From an uncultured virus (IMG/VR IMGVR_UViG_3300032327_000778) (lineage: Duplodnaviria; Heunggongvirae; Uroviricota; Caudoviricetes): a DNA stretch of 64,000 nt. Positions 4,313-53,314 of the stretch are shown one piece after another. The translations under genes were made by a program, and so were the position numbers. The notes under the pieces were generated by a model. The model saw only the letters and a program-made list of their open reading frames with translations, did not search any database and was not told the origin of the DNA. How positions within the stretch are numbered: the stretch's first letter is position 1; each line of letters starts with the position of its first letter. The stretch is from IMG/VR virus record IMGVR_UViG_3300032327_000778; one strand, written 5' to 3'.

Positions 4313-4342
4313 TTGACTTTTAGGTGCCTAAGGTGATATAAT
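4313..4342 (+). promoter_or_regulatory. sigma70 promoter for plcP-agt-terS-terL unit
   Basis: AAAAATTT upstream element, TTGACT-N18-TATAAT. Confidence 0.75.
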
Positions 4343-9045: not shown

Positions 9046-9486
9046 ATGGACAAAACAGAATACTATCTAGAACTAAAACGAACATTTGCCAGTGAGTTTA
9101 GTTTTTACCTAAAAGCAGCAAATTTTCACTGGAACGTAGAAGGTATGTTGTTTTATCAACATCACGGCTTATTTGAACAAATCTATACAGAAGTGTATGG
9201 TGTAATTGATCAATTTGCAGAAGAACTACGCGCACTACAAATTGTAGCACCTGCTAGTTTATCCCAATTTGCACAGTTGACTTATGTTCAAGATGAGAAT
9301 ATGCCTGGCGACTGGCGTAGTATGCTACAAGAGTTGCTTATGGATAGCGATATGATGGCACTAAAGTTTCAGCAAATGTTTATGGTAGCTGAAGAATTTG
9401 GTGATCATGGACTGTCAAACTTCTTAGCAGATCGTCAAGATGCACACAAAAAGCATTCATGGATGCTACGTAGTTCATTAAAGTAA
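9046..9486 (+). CDS. dps: Dps ferritin-like DNA-protection protein
   Basis: FHWNVEG..F...H..FE..Y.E...ID..AEELR ferroxidase signature; HKKHSWMLRS. Confidence 0.9.
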   Translation: MDKTEYYLELKRTFASEFSFYLKAANFHWNVEGMLFYQHHGLFEQIYTEVYGVIDQFAEELRALQIVAPASLSQFAQLTYVQDENMPGDWRSMLQELLMDSDMMALKFQQMFMVAEEFGDHGLSNFLADRQDAHKKHSWMLRSSLK

Positions 9487-11123: not shown

Positions 11124-13106
11124 ATGGTAGATAAAAATAAAGTACTTACACTAACGAGTACTTTTACTAAGAGTAATCTACCTACCAAAGATATGAGCAT
11201 TGATTCGATTATGATCGAGGGTTACGCAAGTACTGTCGATACTGATCGTCAAGGTGATATTGTACCAGCCACAGTATGGTCAAAAGGTATACAAAATTAC
11301 TTGAAAAATCCAGTAATTTTGGCTTATCATGATCATAGTGAGCCTGTTGGTAGGATGGTGGATCATAGAGTTGACAGTAAGGGTTTGTGGATTAAAGCAC
11401 GAATTTCTGCAGCTGCAGGTGAAGTCTTTAATCTTATCAAAGACGGTGTACTTACTGCTTTTAGTATAGGTTTTCGTATCGCTGATGCGGAATATAATGC
11501 AGCCAACGAGCTGTTTGTTGTAAAAGATCTGGAACTACATGAGATTTCAGTAGTGTCCGTGCCTGCAAATCAAAACACATTATTTAGTTTGTCTAAGTCG
11601 TTTAATACTGACGAAGAAGTTAAATCTTTCAAACTGCAATTTGCGCCCAAGTTGGAATCAGCTAAAGGGCTAGAGTCCCCTGTGGAAGCAAATAGCGACA
11701 CTACAAAGGAATGGAAAATGGATCCTAAAGATATTGAAAAATTGGTGGCTGAAGCTGCCGAAAAAGCTGCTACCCTAGCAGCAAAACAATTTACTGATGC
11801 TCAAGAAAAAGCTTTGGCTGAAAAAGCTGCTGCTGAAAAAGCTACTGCTGAACTTGACGCTAAAGTTAAAGCCGCTATTGCTAGCGTTCAAACAGTAGAT
11901 ACCGGTGCTGAGCGTCTATTGGCCGAAGTTGAGAAGCGTTTTGCTGCTGAACAAGAAAGCCAAAAAAGCGCAATTGCTGGTCTAGAGTCGGCTCTTAAAG
12001 AAAAAGCTCAAGAACTAGAAGCTATTCAAAAATCGCGTATGCAGTTCTTGGATGGCAAAAACGAAATGGCTTACAGCGACAAAGAAAAGGCAGTCCTACT
12101 AGCTAAAATGTCAAACAAGGGTCTTGAGGACACCAAGTTTGGTCGTGAAATGGTTCAAAAGTACGGTGCACACGTGCCTTCGGCTACTTGGGAACTTGAA
12201 GTTAGCTTTAACATGGAAGCTGAGATTCGTCGTCGTCTAGTGGTTGCTCCACTATTCCGCAACATTCAGATGCAGACCAACGTTATGCGTATTCCTATCA
12301 ACCCAGAAGCAGGTACTGCTCAGTGGATTGATAACAGCAGCTTTGGTGCTTATCCTGCTAACGTTTCAGCAGGTAGTGCTGGTGCAAGTGCTGGTAACAC
12401 AGCTATTCATGCTCTTAAAGAAGTTACTCTTAGTGCATATAAAGTGGCTACTAATGAGTACACCGCTTACGAAGAAGAGGAAGATAGCCTTATTGCTATT
12501 ATGCCTGTGATTCGTGACGGCATGATTCGTCGTGTTGCTCGCTCAGTTGACAAAGCTCTACTACGTGGCGCTGGTGGTTCAGGCGATCCAATTAGTGGTT
12601 TGTCGCTATTGGCTTTCCCAAGCAGCTCGACTGCTTACACAACCAATGCTAACCTAGCAACAGGTGCTAACGTTGCTACGCTACGCACAATGCGTAAGAA
12701 GCTAGGTGTTTGGGGTCTTGATCCTGCAGATGTGGTGTACATTGTTAATACAGCAACGTACTACAACTTGCTTGATGATCCTGTTTTCCAAACAATGAAC
12801 CAAGTTGGGCCTTCGGCTACATTGCTAACAGGTCAAATCGGCCAAATTGGTAACAGCCCGGTTCTAGTTTCTGGTGAACTAGACGGTGCCACAACTACAG
12901 CTGGTTCGGATTATGCATCTACCGCTGGTATTGTTGTAGCTCCAGGCAACTTCCTTATTGGTAGTCAGCGTGGCTTGCGTATTGATACGCAAGAGCTTGT
13001 GGAAACACAGCGCCGCGTTATGGTTGCTAGCCTGCGTACTGGTTTTGTACAAGTTACAAATAATGCTTCGCATGGTCCTGGCGTTTCGCGTCTGGTTGTT
13101 AATTGA
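11124..13106 (+). CDS. Prohead protease fused in frame to HK97-fold major capsid protein (internal capsid start at 11718)
   Basis: IEGYAS..DRQGD, LAYHDH, FSIGF, LHEISVVSVPAN protease motifs; Ala/Glu/Lys delta domain; capsid body. Confidence 0.9.
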   Translation: MVDKNKVLTLTSTFTKSNLPTKDMSIDSIMIEGYASTVDTDRQGDIVPATVWSKGIQNYLKNPVILAYHDHSEPVGRMVDHRVDSKGLWIKARISAAAGEVFNLIKDGVLTAFSIGFRIADAEYNAANELFVVKDLELHEISVVSVPANQNTLFSLSKSFNTDEEVKSFKLQFAPKLESAKGLESPVEANSDTTKEWKMDPKDIEKLVAEAAEKAATLAAKQFTDAQEKALAEKAAAEKATAELDAKVKAAIASVQTVDTGAERLLAEVEKRFAAEQESQKSAIAGLESALKEKAQELEAIQKSRMQFLDGKNEMAYSDKEKAVLLAKMSNKGLEDTKFGREMVQKYGAHVPSATWELEVSFNMEAEIRRRLVVAPLFRNIQMQTNVMRIPINPEAGTAQWIDNSSFGAYPANVSAGSAGASAGNTAIHALKEVTLSAYKVATNEYTAYEEEEDSLIAIMPVIRDGMIRRVARSVDKALLRGAGGSGDPISGLSLLAFPSSSTAYTTNANLATGANVATLRTMRKKLGVWGLDPADVVYIVNTATYYNLLDDPVFQTMNQVGPSATLLTGQIGQIGNSPVLVSGELDGATTTAGSDYASTAGIVVAPGNFLIGSQRGLRIDTQELVETQRRVMVASLRTGFVQVTNNASHGPGVSRLVVN

Positions 13107-13121
13107 TTTTTTAATCAATCT

Positions 13122-13150
13122 AAGACAGGGCTTTCGAGCCCTGTCTTTTA
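13122..13150 (+). terminator. Intrinsic terminator after capsid gene
   Basis: AAGACAGGGCT-TTCG-AGCCCTGTCTTTT. Confidence 0.85.
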
Positions 13151-13193
13151 CATGGGCTTCAAGGAGTCTATGTAAAAGACACAGGGGAAAACA

Positions 13194-13781
13194 ATGGCAT
13201 TAAATTTAATTACATTAGCTGAATATAAAACTTATGCCGGAATTAAAAGTACTAATTACGACAGAGAGATTGCTGGACTAATTCCCCGCGTAAGTGAACT
13301 GGTAAAAAAATACTGCAATAAAACTTTTGTAGACTATGTAGATGCAGATAAAATTGAGTACTTTAATGGTGCTACTAGTTTTGGCGGTAGTGGTCAGTCA
13401 AAATTTATTTTGCAAGAAAGTCCAGTTATTAGTGTTAGCGAGGTTGCGCTAAGCACAGACTACGGACAAAACTATACACCACTAGTACCTTATGTAGACT
13501 GGGTACAAGATGGTGACGAAGTTTTAGCAATTGGCTCACAAGGATTTATTAAGTATATTCGCGGTTATCGTGTTACTTATCGCGCTGGATATGATGATGT
13601 GCCTAGCGATGTTGCACTAGCAATTATGGATTTGATTAGCTACTATCGTCAAAATGATGCAGCAATTCACAGTACAAAAGCACCTGGTACTAATAGCGTG
13701 CAAATTGAGTATATTTCAACTACTCAACTGCCTGCTCATATTAAACGTGTACTAGATTTGTATAAATCGGATTACACATGA
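13194..13781 (+). CDS. Head completion / head-tail adaptor (T5 p144-like)
   Basis: LITLAEYK, V.YRAGY..VP.D..LA, PAHIKRVLDLY; synteny. Confidence 0.8.
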   Translation: MALNLITLAEYKTYAGIKSTNYDREIAGLIPRVSELVKKYCNKTFVDYVDADKIEYFNGATSFGGSGQSKFILQESPVISVSEVALSTDYGQNYTPLVPYVDWVQDGDEVLAIGSQGFIKYIRGYRVTYRAGYDDVPSDVALAIMDLISYYRQNDAAIHSTKAPGTNSVQIEYISTTQLPAHIKRVLDLYKSDYT

Positions 13782-15259
13782 GTATTAAAGACTTTACAGC
13801 AGCTATTCAAAGTGCTGCATATAGAACATGGTTATCTAAACTACAAGATAATATTCTTACTCAAAGTGCTAAAGAGTTACGTAAAAAAGAACAAACTGGT
13901 GCAAAAACCAGTTTTTATGTTACGCAAACACAGATTAGACAAATCTATGAGCGAATAACTGGTAAAGAAATAGATATTGGCACATTAGGCGAAATTTTTA
14001 ATGCTCTGCAAGAAGAAAATGAAAAGATAACTAATCCAGTAAAACGTAGAGAATCTGCTGGACAAGTTATTAATGTAGGAACTGGCGAACAAGCAATATT
14101 TTTTGAATCTATTGGCTTTGACACTATTAGTACTAAGTTTCAAGAAGTATTTGAAGATGATAATGTTAAAGCCGCATATGCAAATGCTACATCAAGAGAA
14201 TATGAGACCCGTAAAGCAGAATTAGAAGCACAATATGGCAAAGGTAGAGTACCTCAATCTCAATTAGACGAGATTAAAAAAGAAGCCGATAGACATGGCA
14301 CTTTTGGTTACTACGTTAATAAAGGTCATGTGATTAGTGTAGCAACTAATTTATTGAAAAAAACCAGAGATGATATTGACAAAGCCGAAGGTTTATCCGC
14401 CAATCAAAAAGAAGCTTTAAAAGCAGCTTTAAAAGCATATATTGCTAAACTCGAAGCAGACGATATTCTTACTAGTAATTTAAAACAAATTGATCAAACT
14501 ATTTATGCTAATTATGTCAAAGATAGTTATGGTAAATACCTAGTAGAATTTCAATTTGGTGTAGAAAATCAGCTTTCAGGGTCAGTAAGTGCTAATATAC
14601 TTCAAGAAATTAAAGATCTGTTTACATTAAAAACAGAAGATGCAGAAGCAGTTATAAAAAACTCACCTATATTAGGACAGGCATTATTAGAAACAGAAGG
14701 ATCTCCTAGTTTTATTCAAATGCTTGCTGATAATTTAACTGATATTATTCAAACTGGTAAAAGTAAGAAAAAAACTTATACTGGTCAAACTGCTGAAGTA
14801 GCTAGAAAATCTACTAAAGTAGTTAAAAGTAATAATAAAGCTAAAATTTCAAAACTTAAAAAAGTGCTTAGTGATATAGAGCAAACGCCTAATAAACCTA
14901 CAATTATTCAAGCTGCACCAATGCAAGCAGCTACAGATTTAACTTCATTATTAGCACTATTCAATGGTAAATTACGAGAAGCTATTGTTAAAAACATGGG
15001 CACTGGCACAAGTACCTCAGTATTAAATTACAGAACAGGTAGATTTGCAAGCAGTGCAAAAATTGAACGACTAACTGAGAGCAGACAAGGTATGATTACC
15101 GCTTTTTATAGTTATATGCGTAATCCATACGGAACTTTTAGTGCAGGTGGTGCTCAGGAAAATCCTAAGAGCAGAGACCCTAAACTGTTGATAGCTAAAT
15201 CAATCAGGGATATTGCAGTAGAAAATATAAAGAATAGATTAAGGGCGGTGAATGTATGA
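13778..15259 (+). CDS. Tail completion protein (T5 p143-like C-terminus, long N-terminal region)
   Basis: LNYRTGRFA...YM..PY..F...RDP..LI..SIR; synteny. Confidence 0.65.
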   Translation: MSIKDFTAAIQSAAYRTWLSKLQDNILTQSAKELRKKEQTGAKTSFYVTQTQIRQIYERITGKEIDIGTLGEIFNALQEENEKITNPVKRRESAGQVINVGTGEQAIFFESIGFDTISTKFQEVFEDDNVKAAYANATSREYETRKAELEAQYGKGRVPQSQLDEIKKEADRHGTFGYYVNKGHVISVATNLLKKTRDDIDKAEGLSANQKEALKAALKAYIAKLEADDILTSNLKQIDQTIYANYVKDSYGKYLVEFQFGVENQLSGSVSANILQEIKDLFTLKTEDAEAVIKNSPILGQALLETEGSPSFIQMLADNLTDIIQTGKSKKKTYTGQTAEVARKSTKVVKSNNKAKISKLKKVLSDIEQTPNKPTIIQAAPMQAATDLTSLLALFNGKLREAIVKNMGTGTSTSVLNYRTGRFASSAKIERLTESRQGMITAFYSYMRNPYGTFSAGGAQENPKSRDPKLLIAKSIRDIAVENIKNRLRAVNV

Positions 15260-15693
15260 GTAAACGAACTAGTATTGTAAAAGCCCTTGTTCAACAGCTT
15301 AACAAGATTAATGGTCAAGCGCCTTATCAAGTTAATATGTTTAAAAATTGTTATGCTAAACTAAAGTTTTGGGACGAGGTAAAAGACTTTCCAAGTATAT
15401 TTGTTACTCCCACCAATGAAATCCGAGAGTATCATCCTGCTGACTTTAAGTGGGGATTTTTAACACTATGCATCCGAGTTTACTGTCACGGTGAAACCAG
15501 CAGTGAACAATTAGAGAAACTACTAGAAGATGTTGAAACTTGTATTGATGCTAATAACCGATTAGTTTACAATACTACAACCGGATATGAAACGACTGAT
15601 ATGTTAATTCAGTCGATTACAACTGATGAGGGGCTATTAGCACCTTATGCAGTTGGAGAAATTATCTTACAAGTCCGTTATCAGATTATGTAA
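15256..15693 (+). CDS. Tail terminator (T5 p142-like)
   Basis: RTSIVKAL, KFWDEV.DFP, SITTDEGLLAPY.VGE. Confidence 0.8.
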   Translation: MSKRTSIVKALVQQLNKINGQAPYQVNMFKNCYAKLKFWDEVKDFPSIFVTPTNEIREYHPADFKWGFLTLCIRVYCHGETSSEQLEKLLEDVETCIDANNRLVYNTTTGYETTDMLIQSITTDEGLLAPYAVGEIILQVRYQIM

Positions 15694-15770
15694 GCAACCA
15701 TGCGGATAGTGCTAGCAACAGATAAAAGTCTAGTTAATGCACTTAGGCATTAAATAAAAAGGAATGAGAG

Positions 15771-17681
15771 ATGTCATTTAATTTAATTCGTAATAGTCGG
15801 ATGTTCTTCACGACTAATGTGGATGCATCGAGCGGGGTGGTAGCCTCCAGCGGATTCACATCAAGCAATACATATGAAATCCAAGTTCTAGATGGCTTCA
15901 GCTTTAGTCAAAATACAACGGCTGATGTGGTTACTCTAAATGAAGCTGGTGCAACACCTGTTCGCGGTCAACGTAGTTTTAACACGGCACTTGATCCAGT
16001 AGATTTTACATTTAGTACTTATATTCGTCCTGCTGACTCTAGCACTGCTGCTGGCGGTTTTAATAGTGGGATTCTTACAGTTCCAGGACCTTCGGCTATT
16101 ACTGCCAACGTTGCAAACGTTACAGTAGCGTTTAGCGTAAAAAATAGTGCAGCTAACGTAGTTGCCAATGTTTCGTCAAAAGTAATTAATTTTACATTAA
16201 GTCGTGCTGGTACTGCAAATGCGGCTTCAAGCACTGCTAGTTATTTTGCAATTACAAATAATCCTACAGTGGTTAGCAAAGCAGCTACAACAGGTGCTCT
16301 ACCTGCTACACTACCAACATTGACTACTAGCACAGTTAATATTCTAACTCCTGCATATCAATGGGCTGTTCAAACTGCTAGTACTGGTAGCTTTGCAAAT
16401 ATTAGTGGTGCTACAAGTAGTACTTACCTAATTAATAGCGGTGGTGCAGAATATTTAGCTGGTGCTAATACTGGTCCTAATGTTAATACTTATCGTTGTA
16501 TTGTAAATGGTACAATCAATGGTACAGCAGGTGTAGTTACTGACGATATTGAAGTGCCAGTTGTACAAGCAGTTGCTAGTGGTGTTGGTGCAATTGTAGT
16601 AGCTTCAAGTAGTTTGAATAAACCACTAAAAGCTGCAAACGGTTCAGCATTTACAGATGTAGATTTTACTACAGGCAGTGTTGGTATTAGTGTTTATGAA
16701 GGTGCTACTATTGTACCGTTTGACGGTGTTGGTACTGCTAGTACTACTAGTACATTCAAAGTAAACTATACTCCAGCACCTAGTAATGTTACAGTTAGTA
16801 CAGGTACTAGTGTTGTTACAGCTGAAGAAGCCGTACTCTGGAATGCACTAATGAGCACAACTAGTATTGGTAGTACTGGTGCTGGTTGGACAGAGACCTA
16901 TCAGTATGCAAAATTAGTTGCAGATTATTCGCAGGCTCACCAACTACAAAAGTTTGGTGTAATTATTGTACTAGACTCTAGCAGCTTTATTATTGATAAC
17001 TGTGCATTGGATAGTGCTACAATTGACTTTGGTCTTGATGCAATTGCAACAATTGCTTGGGCTGGTAAAGGTACTAAACTACGTCAGCTTCCTGGCCTAA
17101 CAGCTACTTCTGGTACAACAGTTACTTTTGGTAGCGGTTTAAGCGGTACAGCTAAAGGTAAAAACTACCAAGCACCATATATTGCTAATAAGTTGAGCAC
17201 TATGAGTGTTAAAGGCGGTATTAATGGTAGTGGTACAGTTTATACTGTAGCCTTAACAGGCGGTCAGATGGTTATTAGTAATAATATTACCTACTTGACG
17301 CCTGCTAACTTGGGTATTGTTAACCAACCTATTACTTACTTTACAGGTACACGTAGTATCACAGGTACTTTAAACGCCTACCTACGTACAGGTACAGTTG
17401 CAGTACCAAACAGTACAGCAACACTCCTAAGTGATATGTTAACACAAAGCTTAACCGATGTTAATCCTGCTTATGAGATGATTGTTGCAGTTGGTGGTTC
17501 TACTAACCCAATTCGTATTGAACTAGATGTTAGTGCCGCAGTGTTAACAATTCCTAGTATTGCTACGGAACAGGTTATCAGTACAAGTATTAACTTTACT
17601 GGTCAGGGCTATACAACCGCTAATCAGTTTGATATTTCTCAATCTAATGAAGTAGAAGTTCGTTACTACACAGTAGTCTAA
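15771..17681 (+). CDS. Major tail tube protein (T5 pb6-like) with internal insertion
   Basis: MSFNLIRNSR, TLNEAG..P.RG...FN..L...F.FSTYI.P, IDFGLDAIATIAW.G, TG.RSITG.L..YL. Confidence 0.88.
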   Translation: MSFNLIRNSRMFFTTNVDASSGVVASSGFTSSNTYEIQVLDGFSFSQNTTADVVTLNEAGATPVRGQRSFNTALDPVDFTFSTYIRPADSSTAAGGFNSGILTVPGPSAITANVANVTVAFSVKNSAANVVANVSSKVINFTLSRAGTANAASSTASYFAITNNPTVVSKAATTGALPATLPTLTTSTVNILTPAYQWAVQTASTGSFANISGATSSTYLINSGGAEYLAGANTGPNVNTYRCIVNGTINGTAGVVTDDIEVPVVQAVASGVGAIVVASSSLNKPLKAANGSAFTDVDFTTGSVGISVYEGATIVPFDGVGTASTTSTFKVNYTPAPSNVTVSTGTSVVTAEEAVLWNALMSTTSIGSTGAGWTETYQYAKLVADYSQAHQLQKFGVIIVLDSSSFIIDNCALDSATIDFGLDAIATIAWAGKGTKLRQLPGLTATSGTTVTFGSGLSGTAKGKNYQAPYIANKLSTMSVKGGINGSGTVYTVALTGGQMVISNNITYLTPANLGIVNQPITYFTGTRSITGTLNAYLRTGTVAVPNSTATLLSDMLTQSLTDVNPAYEMIVAVGGSTNPIRIELDVSAAVLTIPSIATEQVISTSINFTGQGYTTANQFDISQSNEVEVRYYTVV

Positions 17682-17696
17682 CAACTTAAAATATGC

Positions 17697-17718
17697 GGGG
17701 CTAGCGTAAGCTAGCCCC
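17697..17718 (+). terminator. GC-rich hairpin after tail tube gene (no U-tract; possible attenuator or stabiliser)
   Basis: GGGGCTAGC-GTAA-GCTAGCCCC. Confidence 0.5.
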
Positions 17719-17741
17719 ACTCCCAATAACAAAAGGTAAAC

Positions 17742-18554: not shown

Positions 18555-18583
18555 TTGACATAAAGTAGCCCATATGTTATAAT
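18555..18583 (+). promoter_or_regulatory. Consensus sigma70 promoter for tape measure / tail tip operon
   Basis: AAAAATTT upstream, TTGACA-N17-TATAAT. Confidence 0.85.
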
Positions 18584-18643: not shown

Positions 18644-21600
18644 ATGGCAGGTAATACCGTAAATATTAAACTACAAGTCAAGTCTGACGGTAGTTTAGAA
18701 GCAAGTATTAATGATACCAAAGAACTTAACCGAGAGTTAGGCAAAGCTGTAAAACATGCACAAGAGTACAGTAAAGTAGGTGCCAGTGCTGATAGTATGC
18801 AGTACGGTCGTGCTCGTGGCGCCAGTGGCTTAACTGGTGCAGGTGCCCGAGACTTTGCTAACGAACAGCAAGGTCTTGGTGGATTAGTTCGCCTATATGC
18901 AACACTTGCTGCTAACACTTACGCGGCTGCCACGGCTTTTAACTTTTTGCGTGATGGATATAATGCAGCTATACAAGAGAATGCATTAACACAGTTAAGT
19001 ATTACAAGTGGTGTAGCTATTAATGCGCTAGCTAAAAATTTAGTAGCTGCCACGGATGGTGCACTTAATTTTAAAGACGCAATGGGTGCAGCCGCTAAAG
19101 GTGTTACTAGCGGTTTAAGCAGTAAACAAATGCTACAACTAGCTGATGCTGCTAAAAAAGCCGGTCAAACTATTGGTATTGATACTGCCGAAGCTATTAG
19201 CCGTTTAACTCGTGGTATTACAAAAATTGAGCCTGAATTATTAGACGAACTAGGTTTATTTACTAAACTAGACAAAGCAGTTACAGACTATGCGCGTACT
19301 GTTGGTAAAAGTGTTGGTAGTTTAACAGACTTTGAACGTCGTCAAGCTTTTGCTAATGCTGTGTTAAAGGAAGCTAAAGATAAATTTAATGATGTTAATA
19401 TTCCTGCTAATCCTTATGAAAAACTAGCAGCAGCATTAAGTAATATTGCACTAGAAGGTACTAAATTAGTAAATTTCTTTTTAATACCAGTAGCTGAATT
19501 TTTTACTAATAATACTGGTGCATTAGTTGGTGCTCTTACCTTAATTGCATCAAAAATTATAGGAATGGCAATACCAGCATTAAGCCAATGGCGACAAGGA
19601 TTAAATGATGCTGCAGAAGTAGCAAAACGTCGCGCATCAGATATTAACGTAAGTTTTGGTGATGCTTTTGCACAAAAAATTGAAGCAAAGTACAATATAC
19701 CAAAACTAAAACAAAATCTTGATGATGCAGCACAAGCATATGAACAGTCTAGACAACAATTTTTAGCAACAGATAAAGCATATGCTAGTTCAAAAGATGC
19801 ACAAGATCAAAAAATTTATGGCGCTCTTAGTAAAGGATTAAAAGGTTCAGAACAACTTAGTAGTGATACTACTGCCGCAATACAGCAAAAAATAGTTGAT
19901 TTACGTAAACAAGGATTAAATGTTAGTGAAGCAGATCGTGTTATATTACAAAGTACTGCGGATAAGTTGGAAAAACAATTATTAATCTATGAAAGATTAA
20001 TAGCGGCTCGTAAGGCACTTGCTGATGCAAATAGTAAGTATGATGCAGCTGCAGAAGCCCCTAACTTAGAAGCTAGTTTACGTGAACGAGTAAGCTTACA
20101 GGCTAGACAAAAAGCATTTATGAAAGGAGCTGTTGCCGCAGCTGGAGAAGATACACAAATTTTAGGTGTTAAAGATGCTTTTAAATTATTAAATGAAACT
20201 GTTAATAAAAATTCAGTTGGTTTAAGTGCATTTGATAGAGGCATGACAAAGCTTAAAGGTACTTTAGTTATTGTTGCAGCTGAAGCAGAACTTTTAGCTG
20301 CTGTTTTAAATAGGGCATTTTTTATTTTTACAACAATAGCAACTGCTGTAGCCATCATTGTAGATGCATTTAGTACTGCTGAAAAAGAAGCCAGTAAATT
20401 AACTAGTAGTATAGATGCATTGGAACAGACTGCCGGTTTAACTGATAAAATAATGGAACGTTTTGGTAAAAACGTAAACTCTGTAACATTTAATGCAGTA
20501 GCTACAAATGCCAAAGAATTATTCGATGGGCTAGAAAGTCAGTTAGATGACTTTACACAATACTTGCGTAAACGTAGCTTTGTAGAAGGAATAGTTGACA
20601 GTTTTAAAGATATTTTTGGTGCCGGTAATCTTGGAAATTTTAGGGAAAGTGCCGCAAAAGGAATTGTTGGACAATTAAAAACTCTACCAGCAGGTGAGGC
20701 AAAAAAAGAACTAGAAAATTATTTACAAAATAAAATAGGAGTAGGTAAGTTAACTGAAGAAGCTATATCTGGAGCACTTAAAGGTAAAGATGAATTTAAA
20801 ATACGTGATATAGTTAAAGATGCTAATGATGCTATTGGCAAACAAGTACAAATATTGCAACAACAAAATGGCGTGCTAAAGGATTTAAAACAATCACTAG
20901 AAGCTTTTGGCACTAGTGCTAAAAATTTAGAAAATACATTGTTGCCTAGTGATGCACTGTCAAAATTTGCATTTGATGCTGTAGATGTAGGATTAAAACT
21001 AACAAAAGCATTTGAAGATCCAAAAACTGCTGCAATAGGATTGCAAGAAGCATTAAAAGACCCTAAAGCGTTTCAATTATTAAACGTACAGTTTGAAAAA
21101 GCCGGTTTAAATGCTCAAGCATTAATAGATGACGAACGTGATGTTAATAAACTATTACAAGATCGTGCAGATATTGTTAAAAAACTTGATCAAGCTCAAG
21201 CTGCACAAACGCGAGGCGGTCAAGCTGAACCAGGCGTGTTATCAAACACTATTGCTGATCTGCAAAAACAGCTTAAAACAGCTGATTTTAAGATACAAAT
21301 TAAAAAAGACGGAATAGAAACCGTAACTAATACTTTAAGTAAATTAGCTAATGATGTAATTAGTGAGGCTTTTAGAATTTTAGACTCTAAAGCCAACGCA
21401 GCGCGCGCTCAAGCGCAAATTGGCGTTGAGCGCGCTATTCTACAAGGTGTACAGGGACCAGGTACTTCAGCAGCACAAGCTGACTTAGATCGTAGAGATC
21501 TTGCCATACAGCAACAACAATTAACATTTACAATTGACTTAGTTACTCAGGGACAGCAAGCTAGAATCTTACAAGAAAAACAACTTCTTGAACTACAAAA

Positions 21601-43633: not shown

Positions 43634-46600
43634 ATGGCAAATAAAACTTGGCTTGGAAATGCTAGTACTTGGGCTACTACGACTCAGTGGAATCCAACCG
43701 GCGCAGTTGCAGCCGCTGACAATGTATTTATTAATGGTGGTACTGTTACAGTAGCTGGTCAAACCTGTGCTAATTTAAATATTGGTGGTAACTGTACTAT
43801 TGCAGGAACTAGCCTAATTGTTACTGGTAATTTGTATGTTGCCAGTGGATCTACACTAACGTTTAGTGGCACCTCAACACTTACAGTAAGCGGTAACTTG
43901 TATGTTGATGGAGCAATTCAACAAAGTAGCACTACAGGTAGTCTTGTTCTTGGTGGAGCAGGTAACGTTGAAGGTAGATTTGGTAGTAGTAGTAACTATG
44001 TAAGAGTAACCATTGCTAAAACTGCTATAGCTAATACGGTTACTTTTAGTACTGATTTACATTGCGAATATGTAAATACTACTACTGCAGGGTTTACATT
44101 TACTAGTGGCACCATAAATCAAAATGGCTTTACAATATATACTCGTACATTAAATAATGCCAGTGCCACTGCTAGAAACTGGGCTATGAGTGGTAACTTA
44201 TACATTACTTTAGGTACAACAGGTACAAGTGTTAGCGCTTCTCAAATTACTTGTACATATACAGATAGAGGTGGAGCAATTAGAACCAGTGGAGTAGTAA
44301 GTACACAAACTATGACATTTGGTAGTGGTGCTCCTAGTACTTGCCCTAGACTATTTTTAGATAATGATGTTACTTACGTTATTAGTGGTGCTTTGTGGGA
44401 CTTTTATCCAAATGGCACACACACAGGCGCTGCTACTTTAGTTGTATTTAATGAGCTAACGGATGCAGCTTCAACTAATAAAACGTATACTGGCATGACC
44501 CTAAACCGGGTAGCTTCTTCAGCTGGTACTAATTTAAGCACTAACTGTTCAGCAAGATTTGGTACTGTAAACTTTTATGGTGCTTGGACTAGCGGTACTA
44601 CTTATACAAGTTCAGCAACACATAACGTTGATTTTTGTCGCGCTAATACTATTACTAATATAGGAATTGCTAATTGCACTTGGAACTTTAATAATATTGA
44701 AATTGGTGCAACTTTTACTATAAACCAGCTTAGTACTGGTACAAAAAGCACAGTAACTGTTAATAAAGCTAGACCCATTAGTGGCGTAACTGCTACTACT
44801 AATACTTGGGGCTCAAGTGGTACTGGGACTGCTGGTTGGGATATTTTTATTGAAGACTGGGACGTACCTGGTAGTATTAGTCATGGTGGTGGTAACCTAT
44901 ACATTGGTTATGTTAGTGGTGCTAATACATATACTACTAATTTTACACACGCTACTACTAGTCGTGCACAAAATTTTGGTACTTATTGGGGTCAGCCAAC
45001 TTGGATTGTTAGTAAAAGTAATCAATCTGGTGCACCTACAAATGGTGCTGTAAATCTTAATGCAACTAATTTTACTTGTAATAGTACAAATGGTGGTTGG
45101 AAATTAGCTGGTACTGGTAGTAATGCTCTTGGGGCAATGAATAACACTACCCAACAAATTTTGGTTTATGTGACAGGTAGTAATGTTACAATTGGTAGTG
45201 GTACTATTGCTTACCTAGGCATTGAAGATGGCGGCGCAATTATTGCTAATAGTACCTTGACTATTAATAAAGGCTATATTTATCGCACTGGTGATAATCC
45301 CGGTGCACTTACAGGGTTAAATTTAACGTTAACTACCAGTGATAGTTATAATTATAACTTTGATAAAAAAATTGGTACACTTACTCTAGCTACTAGCAAC
45401 CAAACTTGGGCTTTAGATAATGTAGTGTGTACTAACCTTACATTATCTGGAGCTACGGGCTGTACTTATAATTTTGGTGGTGGAGCAGTTTCTGGCACTA
45501 CTGTTTGTAATGTAAATGCAACTTATAATTGGAATGGTGGCACTTTAGGCACTAGTACTGTATGGACTGTTGGGTTTTTCGTTATTAATAGCACTAATTT
45601 TAATGCAGGTGTTCTTACTTTTAATAGCGGACAATTAGTTTTAAATTCTAGTCTTAATACAATAAGTTTTACTAGTGCTAGTGGCAGTACTCGATTTATA
45701 AATTGGGTTCAACAAAGCAGAATTATTAGTAGTGGAACAGGCCAAATTACTATAAATAATCAAACCAATCTAACTTGGGGTACAATAGATAATGATCCTT
45801 ATTGGGTTGGTGGATTTGAGCACGGAGGTTCGGGGCAAGCCACTGGTTTAGCTTGGACTGCTACAGTACCTAGTTTTCGTTTTAATACTTGGCATACTGG
45901 TAGTGGAACTTATAGTGCTTGGTATACTCAAACTTTTAGAGCATTAGCCTACTCAACTTGTACTGGCGCTAGTAGTGTATTTATTGCTGGTGATTTTTAT
46001 GCTGAAAACGGTGTAATTTCACTTAATGGCATAGCACTAACACAAATATTTAGTAGCGGCACTATTATTATGGATGGTGATCCAATTAATATAGCTAGCT
46101 ATACTCATGCTATTAATGATGCAGGCCAACAATATTTAACCAGATTAATAGCAAATAGCATAACTTTAACAGGACAACGTGTAACTTATAATTTTGGCGA
46201 TTTAGCCAATGATTACTATAATTATGTAAAAATTACTACAACTGGTACCTTAACCCTAAACGGTAAAGATGCAACCTATAATTTATATAGAGTTAGAAGT
46301 TACCATACTACTATAGTTGCTGCTGTATCTACTAGCGATACAATGTATGTATATGTTTATGACTATCAACATAATCTTTATGGTTCTACAGATGGTGGTT
46401 GGACTGGTGTTACTAACGGCATTTTTACTATAACCAATGGTCAAGTAACTGTAATGAGTAATTATACTCTACAAACTTACTCATTTCAAAATGGTGATAA
46501 TGCTAGACCTAATAGAGCGCTTAGTTTTGGGGACAATGCTTATTTACAAACTAATGGTGCTGGCTTTATAACTACTATTTATAGCAGTGTTTGTACTTAT

Positions 46601-49600
46601 TACTGTCCATACGACAACTCTGGTTTTATACATAATTCTACTGGTAGTATAACTACTCCAGGAGTAAATCCATTAGGTCAAGATAATTGCATTAATCTTA
46701 CTATACAAAAAGCCGCAACAATTTCTACTAGTTTTACTTGTAGAAATTTTACTATAGTAGATGGTGGTGGGTTTAATAGTGCTACAGTATACGTTTTAAA
46801 AAATTGGACTGGTTATACTACTAACACTGTAAGTGGTTTAACTGTACAACATATATTATATAGCGGAGATATTACTTATACTGGTAATCCTGTTGGTCAA
46901 TATACTCATGCTGTTAACGATACCACTCTAAATGTGTATAATTTGCCAGCTATTAATGTAACACTATCAGGGCGGCGATGTACTTATAATTTAGGCAGTT
47001 TAACTAATCCTGATAATTTTTTATTTATTACTACTACTGGTACTTTAATAATAAGTGGTGAGTCTTCTACTTATAACTTATATAAAGTAAGAACTTATAA
47101 TACTACTATGCAGGGTGGCGTATCTACTTCTGATTTAATATATGTTAATTGTTACGACTATTCGCATAATTTTTATAATAATCTTAATCCTACAGCTTAT
47201 GATAAAACCGAGCCAACTGCTGGTACTTTTACTATAACTAATGGTCAATTAACTGTAAAAAGTGGTTATACTTTAGTTACCCATTCATTTGTTAATGCTG
47301 ATAATGCTAGAACTAATAGAGCTTGTAATTTTGAAAATAATGCCTATATTAAAACTCTTAATACTGGAACATTAAATGTTTTTTATGCTCCTAATTTAAT
47401 TTCAGTTAGCTGCCCATATGATAATTGTGGGTTTTATCACGACAGTACTGGTGGTGTTAATATTACCGGAACACCTACACTAAGTGATCCAAATAGTGCT
47501 TATAATTTAAAATTTGTTCGTAGTTTTGCCATGACAGGCATTAGCTATATAAGACATTTTAGTAATCAAGCCGATAATGACGGTCAAGGGGCTGGAACTA
47601 TTGCTAGTTTTGGCGGTAGCGGTACCATTAATGTTATGGGTAACGTAGATATAACTGGTAATATTTTTGATGGCAATATAGGAGCAAAAACTACTTGGCA
47701 AAGTTTAAACTTTACTTATCCGTGCACTAGCGGTGCTACGCAAACGCTTAGGACATATAGAGATATTATTGATATAGGTGGCGACCCTATTAATAGGATT
47801 AATATTCTTACATTATTAAGTACATTTACAGGTACAGTAAAATTAGTAGCAGATGGTTTTAAATGTGCTAGTGCTGTAATAGATGGTGGTACACTAGATT
47901 TAAATGGTCGCCAATTATATGCACTAACTAGTGTTAGCAGTACAAATGGAACTGCTAATAAAACAATTACTACTACTGCTACAAATTATACAATTCCAGG
48001 TATTTATATTAATGCTACTACTGGAACTCCTTGGAGTTTTGCGTATAGTAACCTATTATATAGTGACTGGCGAGTATGGGTATATGTTAGAGGTGGAACA
48101 GTATCGCATGGAGCTACAGCAAGACAAAGTCAATTTCAACCTAGTTTTGATTTAACAGAACGTGTTAGTGCTTATGCTTTATCACCTACTACTGCTTTTC
48201 AAGTAGGTAGTTTTAAAATTAATAATTATACTGTACCCACTAATAGTGTTTGGAGTGTTGGTGGTCCTGAATTTACATTTTATACAGGTGCTCAAGCAGC
48301 ACCAGCTAATTTTACAGTAAATATTATTGATGGTGGAAACAGTAAAACTACTACACAACTATATGTAGATAATAATACTTTTGCTTGGCCACAGTTTAAT
48401 ATCAGTACAAACTCTACAATAACTTGTCCTAATTTTAAGTTTAAAAATATTAATATAGATGCCGGCACTACTACTGCATCCGGTCAGTTTGTTGAAGTAG
48501 CAGGAGTTTTGGGTGCTTCAGGTTGGGGCAGCGGCACACTAGATATAGGTGGTAGTACTTGGGCATTTAGAGGATCAGGAACCGTTATTAATTATGGTTT
48601 TATTAGTGTTGGATTTTATACTATAAATACTGGTAAAACAGGTGTTTTACAATTTGACGGACTTAATAACACTAATCTAGGGGATCAATATGCAGGATTT
48701 GCTGCTGCTTATGACCTTAATATAGTTAATAATATTTCGTATAATACTGGCACTAGTGTTGGTACTTTATTTCTTGAATCTGGCTATAGCCAAGATACCT
48801 CAAAAGCTCTTCTTAATAATCTTACTTTTGGCTATAATACAGCCAGTATGACTTTTAGATCAGATAAACCTCCAGGTGGAGCCGGATTTCCTCTTAAGGG
48901 TTCTGGATTTAATTTAGGTAAAACCGCTACTAAATATCTTACATCAGTAGGTGGTAATTGGGGCAACAAAGGTCTTTATAATGTTGAAGCTACTAGCGTA
49001 ATAGATGCTAACTATCTTGACTTAACAAGTTGTTTTCCTGCTGGTGGTGGTGGTTGGTATGCTGGACCAAATAGTGTAGATCGTGGTGGAAACACTGGAA
49101 GTAATGGTTGGTATTTTTATAGCCCAGCAACTTTTAGCTTAAGCCGTAGCGCTAGCGCAGTTAATGAGGGTAATAGTGTTACAATTACTTTAACTACTAA
49201 TGCGGCTAATGGCAGTGTTTTACCTTATACAATTACAGGCATTACTAGTGCTGATATTGGTGGAGCTAGTTTAACTGGTAATTTTACAGTTAGTAGTGGT
49301 ACTGCTGCAGTTGTGCTTAATATAGCCAATGATTATACTACTGAAGGTAGTGAAACACTTACACTTTCATTAAATAATGGTTCGGCAAGTATTGCGGTTG
49401 CTATTAACGATACATCATTGACTCCTACGTATAGTTTAAGTAGAAGTATAGCTGCTGTAACTGAAGGCGATAGTTTTACTATTAGTTTATCTACTACTAA
49501 TTTACCAAATGGTGCTCTTGTGCCGTATACAATAACTGGTGTAGATAGTAGTGATATTAATGGTGCTAGTCTAACAGGTAATTTTACAATTAGTGGTAGT

Positions 49601-50365
49601 AGTGCTAGTTTAACTATTGTTACCACTTGGGATTATGTTAGTGAAGGTCAAGAAATTCTAACACTTACCCTAAATCCTACTTACGGTACAGGCAGTGCAA
49701 TTGCTGTTGCAATTAATAACAAATTACATCCTACCTATGCTTTATCTGTTACTCCTGCTGTTACAACAGAAGGAGGTAATTTTACAGTTACCTTAAATAC
49801 CACTGATGTACCAAATAATACCACAATACCATATACTATTACAGGTATAAGTAGTGCAGATATTACTGCTGCTAGTTTAACTGGTAATTTTACAATTGTT
49901 AGTAATACAGCTAGTGTAACATTTACTACTACCGCTGATTATTTAACCGAAGGCACTGAAACTTTTAGACTTACATTAGATACAATAGGTACATTTGTAG
50001 AAATAAATATTTTAGATTACTATAAAACTCGTACGTATGCTTTGAGCACTAGCGCAACTACTGTTACTGAAGGTGAAAGTTTTACTATTACCCTAAATAC
50101 TACAAATGTGTTTGATGCCACCACAGTACCCTATACAATTACTGGAGTTAGTACCGCAGATATTAATGGTGCTAGTTTAACTGGTAATTTTACTATTACT
50201 AGTGGTAGTAGTACTCAAACTTTTACTAGTACTATAGATGTTATTGTAGAAGGAACAGAAACATTTACCTTAACGCTAGGTAGTCCAGCAAGTGGATCAA
50301 TCAATGTTAGTATACGAGACCCAGTTGCTGGTAGTACTGGTAATTTTTTAAGTTTTTTTGAATAG
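43634..50365 (+). CDS. Giant beta-rich adhesin-like virion protein (2243 aa) with four C-terminal Ig/Calx-beta-like repeats
   Basis: T/G/N/S-rich beta-helix-like body; four V.EG...VPYTITG..S.DI..ASLTGNF...EG.E repeats. Confidence 0.75.
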   Translation: MANKTWLGNASTWATTTQWNPTGAVAAADNVFINGGTVTVAGQTCANLNIGGNCTIAGTSLIVTGNLYVASGSTLTFSGTSTLTVSGNLYVDGAIQQSSTTGSLVLGGAGNVEGRFGSSSNYVRVTIAKTAIANTVTFSTDLHCEYVNTTTAGFTFTSGTINQNGFTIYTRTLNNASATARNWAMSGNLYITLGTTGTSVSASQITCTYTDRGGAIRTSGVVSTQTMTFGSGAPSTCPRLFLDNDVTYVISGALWDFYPNGTHTGAATLVVFNELTDAASTNKTYTGMTLNRVASSAGTNLSTNCSARFGTVNFYGAWTSGTTYTSSATHNVDFCRANTITNIGIANCTWNFNNIEIGATFTINQLSTGTKSTVTVNKARPISGVTATTNTWGSSGTGTAGWDIFIEDWDVPGSISHGGGNLYIGYVSGANTYTTNFTHATTSRAQNFGTYWGQPTWIVSKSNQSGAPTNGAVNLNATNFTCNSTNGGWKLAGTGSNALGAMNNTTQQILVYVTGSNVTIGSGTIAYLGIEDGGAIIANSTLTINKGYIYRTGDNPGALTGLNLTLTTSDSYNYNFDKKIGTLTLATSNQTWALDNVVCTNLTLSGATGCTYNFGGGAVSGTTVCNVNATYNWNGGTLGTSTVWTVGFFVINSTNFNAGVLTFNSGQLVLNSSLNTISFTSASGSTRFINWVQQSRIISSGTGQITINNQTNLTWGTIDNDPYWVGGFEHGGSGQATGLAWTATVPSFRFNTWHTGSGTYSAWYTQTFRALAYSTCTGASSVFIAGDFYAENGVISLNGIALTQIFSSGTIIMDGDPINIASYTHAINDAGQQYLTRLIANSITLTGQRVTYNFGDLANDYYNYVKITTTGTLTLNGKDATYNLYRVRSYHTTIVAAVSTSDTMYVYVYDYQHNLYGSTDGGWTGVTNGIFTITNGQVTVMSNYTLQTYSFQNGDNARPNRALSFGDNAYLQTNGAGFITTIYSSVCTYYCPYDNSGFIHNSTGSITTPGVNPLGQDNCINLTIQKAATISTSFTCRNFTIVDGGGFNSATVYVLKNWTGYTTNTVSGLTVQHILYSGDITYTGNPVGQYTHAVNDTTLNVYNLPAINVTLSGRRCTYNLGSLTNPDNFLFITTTGTLIISGESSTYNLYKVRTYNTTMQGGVSTSDLIYVNCYDYSHNFYNNLNPTAYDKTEPTAGTFTITNGQLTVKSGYTLVTHSFVNADNARTNRACNFENNAYIKTLNTGTLNVFYAPNLISVSCPYDNCGFYHDSTGGVNITGTPTLSDPNSAYNLKFVRSFAMTGISYIRHFSNQADNDGQGAGTIASFGGSGTINVMGNVDITGNIFDGNIGAKTTWQSLNFTYPCTSGATQTLRTYRDIIDIGGDPINRINILTLLSTFTGTVKLVADGFKCASAVIDGGTLDLNGRQLYALTSVSSTNGTANKTITTTATNYTIPGIYINATTGTPWSFAYSNLLYSDWRVWVYVRGGTVSHGATARQSQFQPSFDLTERVSAYALSPTTAFQVGSFKINNYTVPTNSVWSVGGPEFTFYTGAQAAPANFTVNIIDGGNSKTTTQLYVDNNTFAWPQFNISTNSTITCPNFKFKNINIDAGTTTASGQFVEVAGVLGASGWGSGTLDIGGSTWAFRGSGTVINYGFISVGFYTINTGKTGVLQFDGLNNTNLGDQYAGFAAAYDLNIVNNISYNTGTSVGTLFLESGYSQDTSKALLNNLTFGYNTASMTFRSDKPPGGAGFPLKGSGFNLGKTATKYLTSVGGNWGNKGLYNVEATSVIDANYLDLTSCFPAGGGGWYAGPNSVDRGGNTGSNGWYFYSPATFSLSRSASAVNEGNSVTITLTTNAANGSVLPYTITGITSADIGGASLTGNFTVSSGTAAVVLNIANDYTTEGSETLTLSLNNGSASIAVAINDTSLTPTYSLSRSIAAVTEGDSFTISLSTTNLPNGALVPYTITGVDSSDINGASLTGNFTISGSSASLTIVTTWDYVSEGQEILTLTLNPTYGTGSAIAVAINNKLHPTYALSVTPAVTTEGGNFTVTLNTTDVPNNTTIPYTITGISSADITAASLTGNFTIVSNTASVTFTTTADYLTEGTETFRLTLDTIGTFVEINILDYYKTRTYALSTSATTVTEGESFTITLNTTNVFDATTVPYTITGVSTADINGASLTGNFTITSGSSTQTFTSTIDVIVEGTETFTLTLGSPASGSINVSIRDPVAGSTGNFLSFFE

Positions 50366-51439: not shown

Positions 51440-51975
51440 TAGAGCTCGAGTCTTGCATACACTTAAAGCATCCACGATGTTGGAATCCTAAGTCTAGGCT
51501 TAAGAGTGCTAGAGAGGAAGGTGCAGGACTTGGACAAATTACCCGGGCTTTTAAACCAGATGGATCTATTAGGTTTGATGCTCTATCAGACTTAAAACAC
51601 AAGTATCCCAAAGAACTGTACGAGCTTAATTGGCAAGTAGTTTATGATAGACCAGACCTACAAATTCGTGCACTAGCATTAATGATGCGTGATAATTATC
51701 AAGCATTTGATAAATATGTGCCCGACAAGCGTGAAGCATATGCATTTGCAGATGCCGCCTATAATGGCGGCTTAGGTGGTGTTAATCACGAGCGTAGAGC
51801 TTGTAAATTAGCAAGTTGGTGTGACCCTAACCGTTGGTTTGATAATGTGGAGAAACTTTGTTTAAAATCTAAAGCAGCATTATATGGTAATCGTAGTGCT
51901 TGTGATATTAATCGTGAACATGTGGAGGGTGTATTAAATACAAGAAGTACAAAATACGAAAAGTATTTAAATTGA
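51412..51975 (+). CDS. Lytic transglycosylase (SLT) endolysin domain, in the -1 frame of the preceding ORF
   Basis: IELES catalytic Glu, GAGLGQIT, AAYNGGLG; no convincing independent start or SD. Confidence 0.8.
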   Translation, partial: PKVAYLGSLIELESCIHLKHPRCWNPKSRLKSAREEGAGLGQITRAFKPDGSIRFDALSDLKHKYPKELYELNWQVVYDRPDLQIRALALMMRDNYQAFDKYVPDKREAYAFADAAYNGGLGGVNHERRACKLASWCDPNRWFDNVEKLCLKSKAALYGNRSACDINREHVEGVLNTRSTKYEKYLN

Positions 51976-51995
51976 AACAACACACAGGAATCTCT

Positions 51996-52694
51996 ATGAA
52001 ACCTTCTTCTGGTAAAGCTTCACGCGAAGATAAATCTGAAAAATCTGAAAAATCTGAAAAATCTGGTAAAACCACTTTTACTGAGGTTAAACCACTTAAT
52101 TATATTCAAGGTATTTATCTTGAAGCAATACACAACAGCGACGTAGTTTTTGGAATTGGCAGTGCAGGAACAGGAAAAACATACGTTGCCGCTAGTTATG
52201 CTGCTTGCGAATTATTCTATAAACGCATTGATAAAATTGTTCTTACTAGACCCAACGTAGAGACCGGCCGCGGTATGGGGTTTTTACCTGGTGCTATTGA
52301 TGAAAAATATGCTCCCTATTTAGCTCCATTTGACAGTGTATTTAATCGCACACTAGGCCATGGTTTTTATCAATATGCACTAAAAAATAAGAATATCGAT
52401 CCTAAACCAATAGGTTTTATGCGTGGTAGTAGCTTTGACGATACTGTAATTTTAGTAGACGAAGCACAAAATTTGACTAAAATAGAGTTAAAAATGCTGC
52501 TAAGCCGTATAGGTAAAAACTGCAAAGTTATCCTAAGCGGTGACCCTAAACAAGTAGATATTATAGACAGCGGATTAGAAGATGCAGTCAACCGACTAGA
52601 AGGTTTAAAAAATATTGAAGTAGTTAGATTTTTAGACGAAGATATTGTACGCAGCCAAATGTGCAAACAAATTATTTTAGCCTATAATAATTAA
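51996..52694 (+). CDS. phoH: PhoH-like ATPase
   Basis: GSAGTGKT, LTRP, GFLPG, FMRG, DEAQN, GDPKQ.D; AGGAA SD. Confidence 0.93.
   Translation: MKPSSGKASREDKSEKSEKSEKSGKTTFTEVKPLNYIQGIYLEAIHNSDVVFGIGSAGTGKTYVAASYAACELFYKRIDKIVLTRPNVETGRGMGFLPGAIDEKYAPYLAPFDSVFNRTLGHGFYQYALKNKNIDPKPIGFMRGSSFDDTVILVDEAQNLTKIELKMLLSRIGKNCKVILSGDPKQVDIIDSGLEDAVNRLEGLKNIEVVRFLDEDIVRSQMCKQIILAYNN
52032..52065 (+). repeat. 9-bp in-frame tandem repeat (AAATCTGAA)x3.8
   Basis: Encodes KSEKSEKSEKSG in the PhoH N-terminus. Confidence 0.9.
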
Positions 52695-52731
52695 AAAAAG
52701 CCCCTTAGTATTGCTACTAAGGGGCTTTTTT
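52693..52731. terminator. Bidirectional terminator between convergent late and replication blocks
   Basis: A7-GCCCCTTAGTA-TTGC-TACTAAGGGGC-T6. Confidence 0.9.
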
Positions 52732-52732
52732 A

Positions 52733-53314
52733 TTATTCATCTAATTCCATAAACACGTCTACTAGAATATCTCTGTATGGTTGTTCAACCATGTGCAAAT
52801 CTAGCAGATAAGTATCTAGGTGACAGTTGCGTAATAGCTGAGCGTGATACATAAACTGACCAAATGCTTCTAAACTTTCACTAATATTTTGATTAGCGTA
52901 ATCTTCTAGGTATTGAGCCATTGCATTAAGCATATAATCAGGCATTTCAGATTTTGTAGTAATTTTGACTAGCTTAATAGCCTTGCCTTCGCGATCTTGC
53001 ATAATTTGATTGCGTTTTTGCTCAGACCAAGTATAACCACCATCACCACCCCACAAATCCCAAGCTACCCTACCTTTACTTGGAAAGCCTTCTTCGCCAC
53101 TATTAAAGCCAGTTGCACGTTTATCTACTTCGTGTCGGCTAAAAAAGCTAAACATTCTAAGTACTACACTAGCACTTAATGGTTCACGATTTTTAAGTTG
53201 ATTAGCACGAGCTAAACCTACTAGTGTACCGCCAGGTTCGCCATCTTCATGCCATTTTAGTGCTCTGCGTGCTGCACTTGCCATTCCCTCTGTAGGGGTA
53301 TAAGTTTCTGCCAT
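52733..53314 (-). CDS. Conserved phage protein of unknown function
   Basis: GT.VG.ARA.QL, RM.SFFSRHEVDK, PS.GR.AW.LWGGD.G domain; AGGAG SD. Confidence 0.8.
   Translation of the reverse strand: MAETYTPTEGMASAARRALKWHEDGEPGGTLVGLARANQLKNREPLSASVVLRMFSFFSRHEVDKRATGFNSGEEGFPSKGRVAWDLWGGDGGYTWSEQKRNQIMQDREGKAIKLVKITTKSEMPDYMLNAMAQYLEDYANQNISESLEAFGQFMYHAQLLRNCHLDTYLLDLHMVEQPYRDILVDVFMELDE

Follow-up and report, generated by a model that had tools for sequence, protein, structure and literature searches.

The unequal output of proteins from one long late operon has so far been explained mostly by ribosome-binding-site strength and by terminators. Here we describe a small hairpin, which we are highly confident is a genuine conserved RNA structure, in a 64,000-nucleotide (nt) stretch of DNA from an uncultured tailed virus (IMG/VR record IMGVR_UViG_3300032327_000778; the whole stretch is hereafter called the window). 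It lies once upstream of an in-frame ATG inside a gene that encodes a prohead protease fused to the major capsid protein (site 1) and once upstream of the tail tube gene (site 2). As judged from sequence comparison, the hairpin most likely sets the amounts of capsid and tube protein, which we assume from T5 biology to be the two most abundant virion proteins, in a large group of uncultured T5-like phages.

Several described systems share features with this element. The operator of T4 gene 32 consists of a pseudoknot and an A/U-rich stretch bound by gp32. As described in PMC3014915, RNase E cuts the gene 32 mRNA 71 nt before the start codon, the upstream part is rapidly degraded, and among T4 mRNAs the gene 32 transcripts have the greatest stability; this leader resembles the present element in that a conserved site lies tens of nt 5' of a highly expressed gene in polycistronic transcripts and is kept among related phages. 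The present element differs from it in being a defined hairpin with an invariant tip, in having two copies and in being known here from sequence alone. The coat-protein operators of MS2 and PP7 are likewise small hairpins, with one bulged nucleotide and a loop of 4 nt, and theirs are read sequence-specifically by a protein. In an MS2-type operator, however, the bulge is a 5'-side purine whose identity is important, and the repressed start codon lies within the hairpin, whereas here the bulged base is 3' and variable (A, U or C) and the hairpin stands 35-45 nt 5' of the start.

Phage lambda has two nut sites, and boxB, a 5-base-pair (bp) stem closed by a purine-rich pentaloop, is bound by N. 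Like the nut sites, the present element takes the form of two short hairpins with A-rich loops per genome, which would act in cis in RNA and stand ahead of terminators; unlike them, it has a 4-nt loop rather than a GNRA-like pentaloop, a 3' bulge and a late-operon location immediately 5' of ribosome-binding sites. The RNase III sites of T7 are also interrupted hairpins between the genes of long phage transcripts and leave protective structures on the products. Here the total helix amounts to 15 bp at site 2 (three helices) and 14 bp at site 1, compared with about 20 bp, or roughly two helical turns, in typical RNase III substrates, and conservation is centred on the apical loop region and not on the helix body. 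Finally, the lambda C/Nu3 nested genes provide a parallel for an in-frame internal start that yields a second, more abundant product from one open reading frame (ORF), and 'Capsid protease fusion' is an annotation already in use for other phages. Unlike in C/Nu3, the internal start described here has ahead of it a dedicated conserved RNA structure, a second copy of which stands before the tube gene.

The two hairpin sites and their relatives

Site 1 (CAGCTAAAGGGCTAG, positions 11659-11673) lies 59 nt 5' of the in-frame ATG at 11718, and site 2 (CAGATAAAAGTCTAG, 15719-15733) lies 52 nt 5' of the tube ATG at 15771, just where an earlier sequence-only reading of the window had placed them. The sites are identical at 12 of 15 positions and differ by one swap of a C:G for an A:U pair and by one loop base. 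Each folds into a C:G pair, a 3' bulged A and a 4-bp stem closed by U:G, with a 4-nt A-rich loop; the compensatory swap, the U:G closing pair and the bulged A are thus present as that reading had them. Its degenerate pattern matches sites 1 and 2 alone in the window, with 0.01 matches expected in shuffles, although this test is circular because the pattern was taken from the same two sites. What rises above chance, on our comparison, is the sequence common to both sites together with its conservation in relatives.

Relatives were collected from IMG/VR in three scans, which gave 20 loci via the tube protein, 80 kept of 449 relatives via the fusion protein and 52 via the fusion protein of a distant member. 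Since some contigs were retrieved repeatedly, distinct sequences provide the fair count. Loci were anchored by short peptides, and loci without those peptides stay outside the counts. The hairpin was found at site 1 in all 133 anchored loci (60/60 distinct sequences), at site 2 in all 58 (34/34 distinct sequences) and at both places in the 45 of 45 loci that span both, with relatives reaching down to about 45-50% protein identity. The check for random placement or lack of conservation that had been proposed along with the motif returned two copies per genome, at orthologous places in all relatives examined. A search upstream of the capsid and tube genes of T5-like phages, suggested in the same reading, came out negative in the two classical Demerecviridae checked, DT57C and Vibrio phage VspSw_1: the motif is absent at both places, and protease and capsid protein are encoded by separate genes with short intergenic gaps. 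In the relatives checked, the fusion remains in a single frame. Rfam 15 gave no match in the whole window at gathering thresholds and nothing overlapping 11636-11696 or 15700-15750 at E<=5, and no description of the element was found in the literature searched (full text, in a restricted collection).

To compare the two sites, we assembled 74 distinct tips from both, collected by a loose regular expression; one of the 75 distinct matches (L107, distant from both sites and unable to pair) was dropped. The bases C, G, U-A-A, C-U and G are invariant in this set, 99.5% of cells are paired, and all 74 tips have a 4-nt loop of the form A-A-W-N and a 3' bulge. At the third stem pair, 46 tips have A:U and 28 have C:G; the first stem pair is A:U in 70 and G:U in four, and the lower pair A:U in 36, U:A in 27, G:U in six and G:C in three. 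The tolerated changes are the same at both sites, namely U:G or U:A as closing pair, A:U to G:U at the first pair, and A, U or C as bulge. Conservation is of the RNA type, with compensatory and wobble changes that keep pairing. Together with the orthology in all relatives examined and the presence of the motif twice per genome, it supports the idea, already put forward in the sequence-only reading, that sites 1 and 2 are copies of one conserved cis element with parallel architecture.

A combined model of both sites (R2) yielded two matches of 28-30 bits in the window, and likewise in a relative whose 99-kb genome is complete and has terminal repeats, while no third copy scored above 12.9 bits in the window or above 14.6 bits in the 99-kb relative. 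Because these strong matches come in twos, we count two copies per genome; both sit on the late-gene strand. A few further candidates were rejected. Extra matches to the loose pattern in G002 and G004 (one each) are on the opposite strand and do not pair. Among the matches of R1, a covariance model built from site 2 only, that at 52802-52823 lies past the late-operon terminator and is antisense to a minus-strand ORF, and that at 19767-19792, in the tape-measure gene, is present only in a 100%-identical contig and absent from the relatives that cover it. The latter stretch has 12 + 6 bases in common with the flanks of the site 2 hairpin.

Architecture of the tube leader and the capsid site

Around the site 2 tip, RNAalifold placed two further helices (P1 and P2), which make up a three-helix leader (Table 1). 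Across 30 distinct sequences, 92.9% of cells in this leader are paired, compared to 19-51% when the partners were slid, and the covariation score is 0.317 versus at most 0.087 in the slid controls; none of 500 shuffles reached the observed paired fraction or covariation score. Compensatory changes occur in 8 of the 15 pairs, and seven of these eight are among the nine pairs of P1 and P2, while four of the six tip pairs are invariant. The hairpin core is unchanged even where tube proteins are only about 45% identical, and the energy of the tip is -2.5 kcal/mol. By these comparative criteria site 2 is a structured RNA, in which the outer helices would serve as a scaffold and the tip is constrained in sequence. 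Of the outward stem extensions that the sequence-only reading had drawn, those at site 2 (AAC/GTT and GTGC/GCAC) proved to be real, conserved helices. The extension at site 1 (GGA..TC/GA..TCC) is present in the window but is not maintained in relatives, where the conserved outer helix is formed instead by 11636-11644 with 11688-11696.

At site 1 the same type of analysis, with 51 distinct sequences, found 98% of cells paired versus 26-37% with partners slid. One pair of the outer helix is A:U in 22 sequences and G:C in 16, by paired synonymous changes, and is broken in 13; the remaining one-sided changes all lead to G:U. This copy overlaps coding sequence and appears to shape its codons and even amino acids. 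We profiled synonymous constraint in four genes (portal, fusion, head-completion and tail-terminator): the top peak of synonymous identity falls on nt 11652-11687 (z 3.5; 74 distinct genes), and a second one, at 11688-11735, lies over the internal Shine-Dalgarno sequence (SD) and ATG (z about 3.2; 74 distinct genes). Invariant codons make up 15 of 27 in residues 150-215 versus 15 of 137 elsewhere (Fisher p 1.2e-6; 8 lineages). At the hairpin itself codons are fixed beyond their residues, as TCA-GCT-AAA, a variable codon and CTN. The variable codon (G, K, E, Q or N-G) always has a purine opposite U and G opposite C, so that pairing is kept. Apart from the islands Q-F-A, S-A-K-x-L, A-N/K-S and E-W-x-M, the linker that joins protease to capsid is variable. 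Since these islands coincide exactly with the strands of the site 1 helices and with the SD, the RNA fold appears to constrain the protein sequence of the fusion.

The in-frame ATG downstream of site 1 (M199) is a candidate start for a nested capsid gene, as the sequence-only reading had proposed, and this proposal gains support from the second synonymous peak, which covers M199 and its SD. Moreover, the protease of DT57C aligns to fusion residues 25-161 and its capsid protein from residue 211 onwards; because these T5-type proteins align on either side, M199 falls in the linker, at the point expected for the start of a separate capsid gene. No conserved frameshift signal was seen 5' of site 1 when the alignments were read.

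Both starts carry AAAGGAATG at -13 to -5, and the position of the element relative to these ribosome-binding sites is fixed. The base of the structure is separated from the AAGGAA SD by 9 nt at site 1 and by 8 nt at site 2, a spacing of 8-9 nt that is kept in most tube leaders as read from the alignment, and the end of the apical hairpin lies 37-44 nt from the ATG. No structure that hides the SD was found; the SD is unpaired in the predicted folds of both sites.

Strong hairpins also follow both genes. The pair of hairpins after the capsid gene is kept with different sequences across the window and all 22 relatives examined. The hairpin after the tube gene is of unrelated sequence in other lineages, and the window copy is without a plus-strand U-run. 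GTCTT, at the 3' end of the first post-capsid hairpin (hairpin A), could pair instead with AAGAC at 13177-13181, just past hairpin B; this alternative pairing is possibly a terminator/antiterminator-like arrangement.

Candidate functions of the element

The reading that we favour, and to which we would give roughly an even chance, is that of a cis-acting element in plus-strand RNA whose tip is read by a specific factor and which controls capsid and tube production post-transcriptionally. It is suggested by four features together: the scaffold covaries, the wobbles are on the coding strand, the distance to the SD is fixed and the tip is invariant. Sequence-specific reading of the tip, in particular, is proposed because there is hardly any variation in the tip, in contrast to the free covariation of P1 and P2, and a link to translation or to 5'-end formation because the bases of the structures lie so close to the SD. 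Each copy would form a multi-helix structure in the long late transcript, with its base 8-9 nt before an exposed AAGGAA SD. The supporting helices, which covary freely, would serve only to hold the tip, composed of the C:G pair, the one-base 3' bulge, a 4-bp stem starting with A:U and G:C, and the A-A-W-N loop. We infer both the trans-acting factor and the direction of its effect: an RNA-binding protein or endoribonuclease, of phage or host, would read the tip sequence-specifically, and as a result translation of capsid and tube may be raised or coordinated, and/or the mRNA may be processed into a hairpin-protected, long-lived segment whose 3' limit is set by the conserved strong hairpins. For site 1, this would put capsid protein started at M199 in excess over the full protease-capsid fusion.

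A number of observations weigh against this reading. A generic structural descriptor that fixes the C:G pair, the bulge and the AAWN loop but allows any 4-bp stem and any lower pair matches four times in the window compared with 2.4 +/- 1.6 times in 200 shuffles, 46 of which reach four; single-sequence folding energies are ordinary (z -0.9 to -1.8); and the minimum-energy fold of site 1 in a longer context pairs differently. With the generic shape so common and the energies ordinary, the case depends on the relatives. R1 misses site 1 among its 15 matches at E<=10, so that the call of one element rests on the comparison of the two copies as paralogues and on their parallel conservation. Within each site the tip is near-invariant and its two-sided changes are mostly one fixed difference between the sites, and hence represent few evolutionary events. 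Pfam and PHROGs, queried with 52 ORFs of the window, brought up no candidate for the RNA-binding protein or nuclease, and the upstream start of the fusion likewise has a good SD, which makes an excess of capsid protein over the fusion an assumption. Taken to its end, this line of doubt would leave no element at all, with site 1 conserved for its peptide S-A-K-x-L and resembling site 2 by accident; the failure of R1 at site 1 and the abundance of hairpins of this general shape fit such a view. We regard it as scarcely credible, since codons and not residues alone are fixed, the x residue varies (G, K, E, Q) with pairing kept, the linker islands follow the RNA helices and the SD, and the exact common pattern is expected 0.01 times per window; synonymous constraint, helix pairing at site 1 and tip pairing largely refute it.

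Among explanations that accept a conserved structure, an unlikely one is a passive leader that prevents upstream sequence from pairing with the ribosome-binding site and/or guards the 5' side of the mRNA after a cut by host RNase E, and that has no sequence-specific partner. Structures that stop 8-9 nt before an unpaired SD, AU-rich single-stranded stretches 5' of both of them, and conserved 3' hairpins that bracket both genes would all suit this role, for which T4 gene 32 mRNA is a precedent (PMC3014915). A purely structural tip should, however, covary like P1 and P2, yet eight of its bases are invariant in all 74 distinct tips, and a tip as weak as that of site 2 would add little protection. 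Rather less probable still is antitermination of the nut type, in which the nascent hairpin loads a factor onto RNA polymerase for read-through of the hairpins after the capsid and tube genes. Two small hairpins with A-rich loops per genome, each with strong terminator-like hairpins one gene later, recall this arrangement, and without read-through the U-run hairpin after the capsid gene would starve the genes up to the sigma70 promoter at 18555-18583. The loop, at 4 nt in every tip, and the 3' bulge are nevertheless not those of the boxB pentaloop, the fixed spacing to the SD is unexpected for a nut site, inspection of the alignments by eye, without a formal search, showed no boxA-like flank common to the two sites, and Pfam and PHROGs, queried with 52 ORFs of the 64-kb window, revealed no arginine-rich N-like antiterminator, small basic proteins being hard to detect. 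A signal at the level of DNA seems very improbable to us, whether as part of a late promoter, as the target of a DNA-binding regulator or as a hairpin in single-stranded DNA. The motif is partly palindromic, site 2 resembles an A/T-rich -10-like box in distant relatives, and G:T wobbles would be tolerable in single-stranded DNA as well; but the flanking helices covary over 51-61 nt, which neither promoter nor operator would need, the asymmetric changes of the G:U type fit the coding strand alone, the bulge interrupts the dyad, and there are only two copies per 99-kb genome. No conserved -10 box lies 3' of the hairpins at a usable distance, and the scan for the sigma70 consensus lists at neither site a promoter with -35 and -10 hexamers 16-18 nt apart whose transcript would include the SD. 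Such promoters are present elsewhere in the late block (4313-4342 and 18555-18583), in keeping with the sigma70 promoters that T5 late genes are reported to use (PMC7472727). For the same reasons, namely RNA covariation, coding-strand G:U wobbles, the number of copies and near-perfect sigma70 promoters in the late block, the non-sigma70 late signal offered as one option in the sequence-only reading is disfavoured. Weak internal sigma70 matches near the sites (11301-11330 and 15545-15573) were rejected, as neither has a peak of synonymous constraint.

Within the favoured reading of a factor-read RNA tip, a more specific version can be put forward tentatively, and we hold it to be possible but rather less than probable: the tip would be the operator of a dedicated RNA-binding protein or the site of a site-specific endoribonuclease, the two operators would form a late regulon that co-sets the supply of capsid and tail tube, and one operator would be written into the fusion through codons that preserve the fold, creating a nested capsid gene. 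The 449 relatives of the fusion gene in a single collection (IMG/VR) point to hundreds of uncultured T5-like phages with a signal only before the capsid and tube starts. If the proposed function is true, the hairpin would represent a new cis-regulatory RNA family and a clear example of protein evolution constrained by RNA structure; it would also explain a large excess of capsid from a protease-capsid fusion and, as a compact module, would be a candidate for expression design.

The late block and neighbouring genes

The window derives from a distant T5-like siphophage, whose capsid and tube proteins share 34-39% identity with their counterparts in Demerecviridae of Vibrio, Klebsiella, Salmonella and Escherichia; a DNA search with the window found no near-identical DNA in any named phage, and no cultured member of the group turned up. 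The late block runs on one strand (+) from about 4365 to 52694, includes the genes for terminase, portal, the 660-aa fusion, head-completion, tail-terminator and the 636-aa tube protein, and terminates at a strong bidirectional terminator.

Table 1. Coordinates of the hairpin sites, their ribosome-binding sites, the downstream hairpins and the two genes in the window
Feature	Position	Strand	Basis
Prohead protease (S78) and HK97-type major capsid protein, one 660-aa ORF	11124..13106	+	Pfam PF04586 1.6e-17, PF05065 7.9e-06
Site 1 structured element: outer helix 11636-11644/11688-11696 around apical hairpin	11636..11696	+	RNAalifold, 51 distinct sequences
Site 1 apical hairpin: U:A and C:G lower pairs, bulged A11672, stem 11660-11663/11668-11671, loop 11664-11667	11658..11674	+	60/60 distinct orthologues
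Internal SD AAGGAA 11706-11711 and in-frame ATG 11718 (M199), proposed nested capsid start	11706..11720	+	W-x-M-D-P conserved; synonymous peak
Two adjacent strong hairpins 3' of capsid stop: A 13123-13146 then U-run, B 13147-13176	13123..13176	+	window and 22/22 relatives
Site 2 structured leader, 51 nt: P1 15700-15703/15747-15750, P2 15708-15712/15739-15743, P3 15717-15723/15728-15735	15700..15750	+	fold, RNAalifold, pair counts
Site 2 apical hairpin: A:U and C:G lower pairs, bulged A15732, stem 15720-15723/15728-15731, loop 15724-15727	15718..15734	+	34/34 distinct orthologues; 33.7 bits with R1
Tube SD AAGGAA 15759-15764 and ATG 15771	15759..15773	+	same AAAGGAATG block as internal capsid start
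Tail tube protein gene, 636 aa	15771..17681	+	tblastn vs T5-like major tail / tail tube proteins, 35-39% identity
GC-rich hairpin directly 3' of tube stop	17695..17720	+	window and 18/18 relatives with tube 3' end covered

Tube proteins of the relatives (L004-L153) are between about 376 and 880 aa long, which suggests lineage-specific inserted domains, and the window protein aligned over at least 85% of its length in three relatives only. At the head of the plus-strand late block, the sequence at 4313-4342 matches sigma70 at 11 of 12 positions, and the promoter at 18555-18583, just 5' of the tape-measure gene, is a perfect consensus (TTGACA-17-TATAAT with TG). Between terminase and portal, the late operon also contains a gene for a ferritin/Dps-like protein (9046-9486; Pfam PF00210, 2.1e-17), which PHROGs labels as a DNA-binding protein. 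A PhoH-like ATPase closes the late block (region 51972-52727), and the strong bidirectional terminator at about 52700-52727 comes next. Finally, the 13-base word CAGTTAAACTAGC occurs three times, at about 49277, 49883 and 50183 (minus-strand reading), within a 2243-aa ORF (43634-50365), and probably reflects a repeated protein segment.

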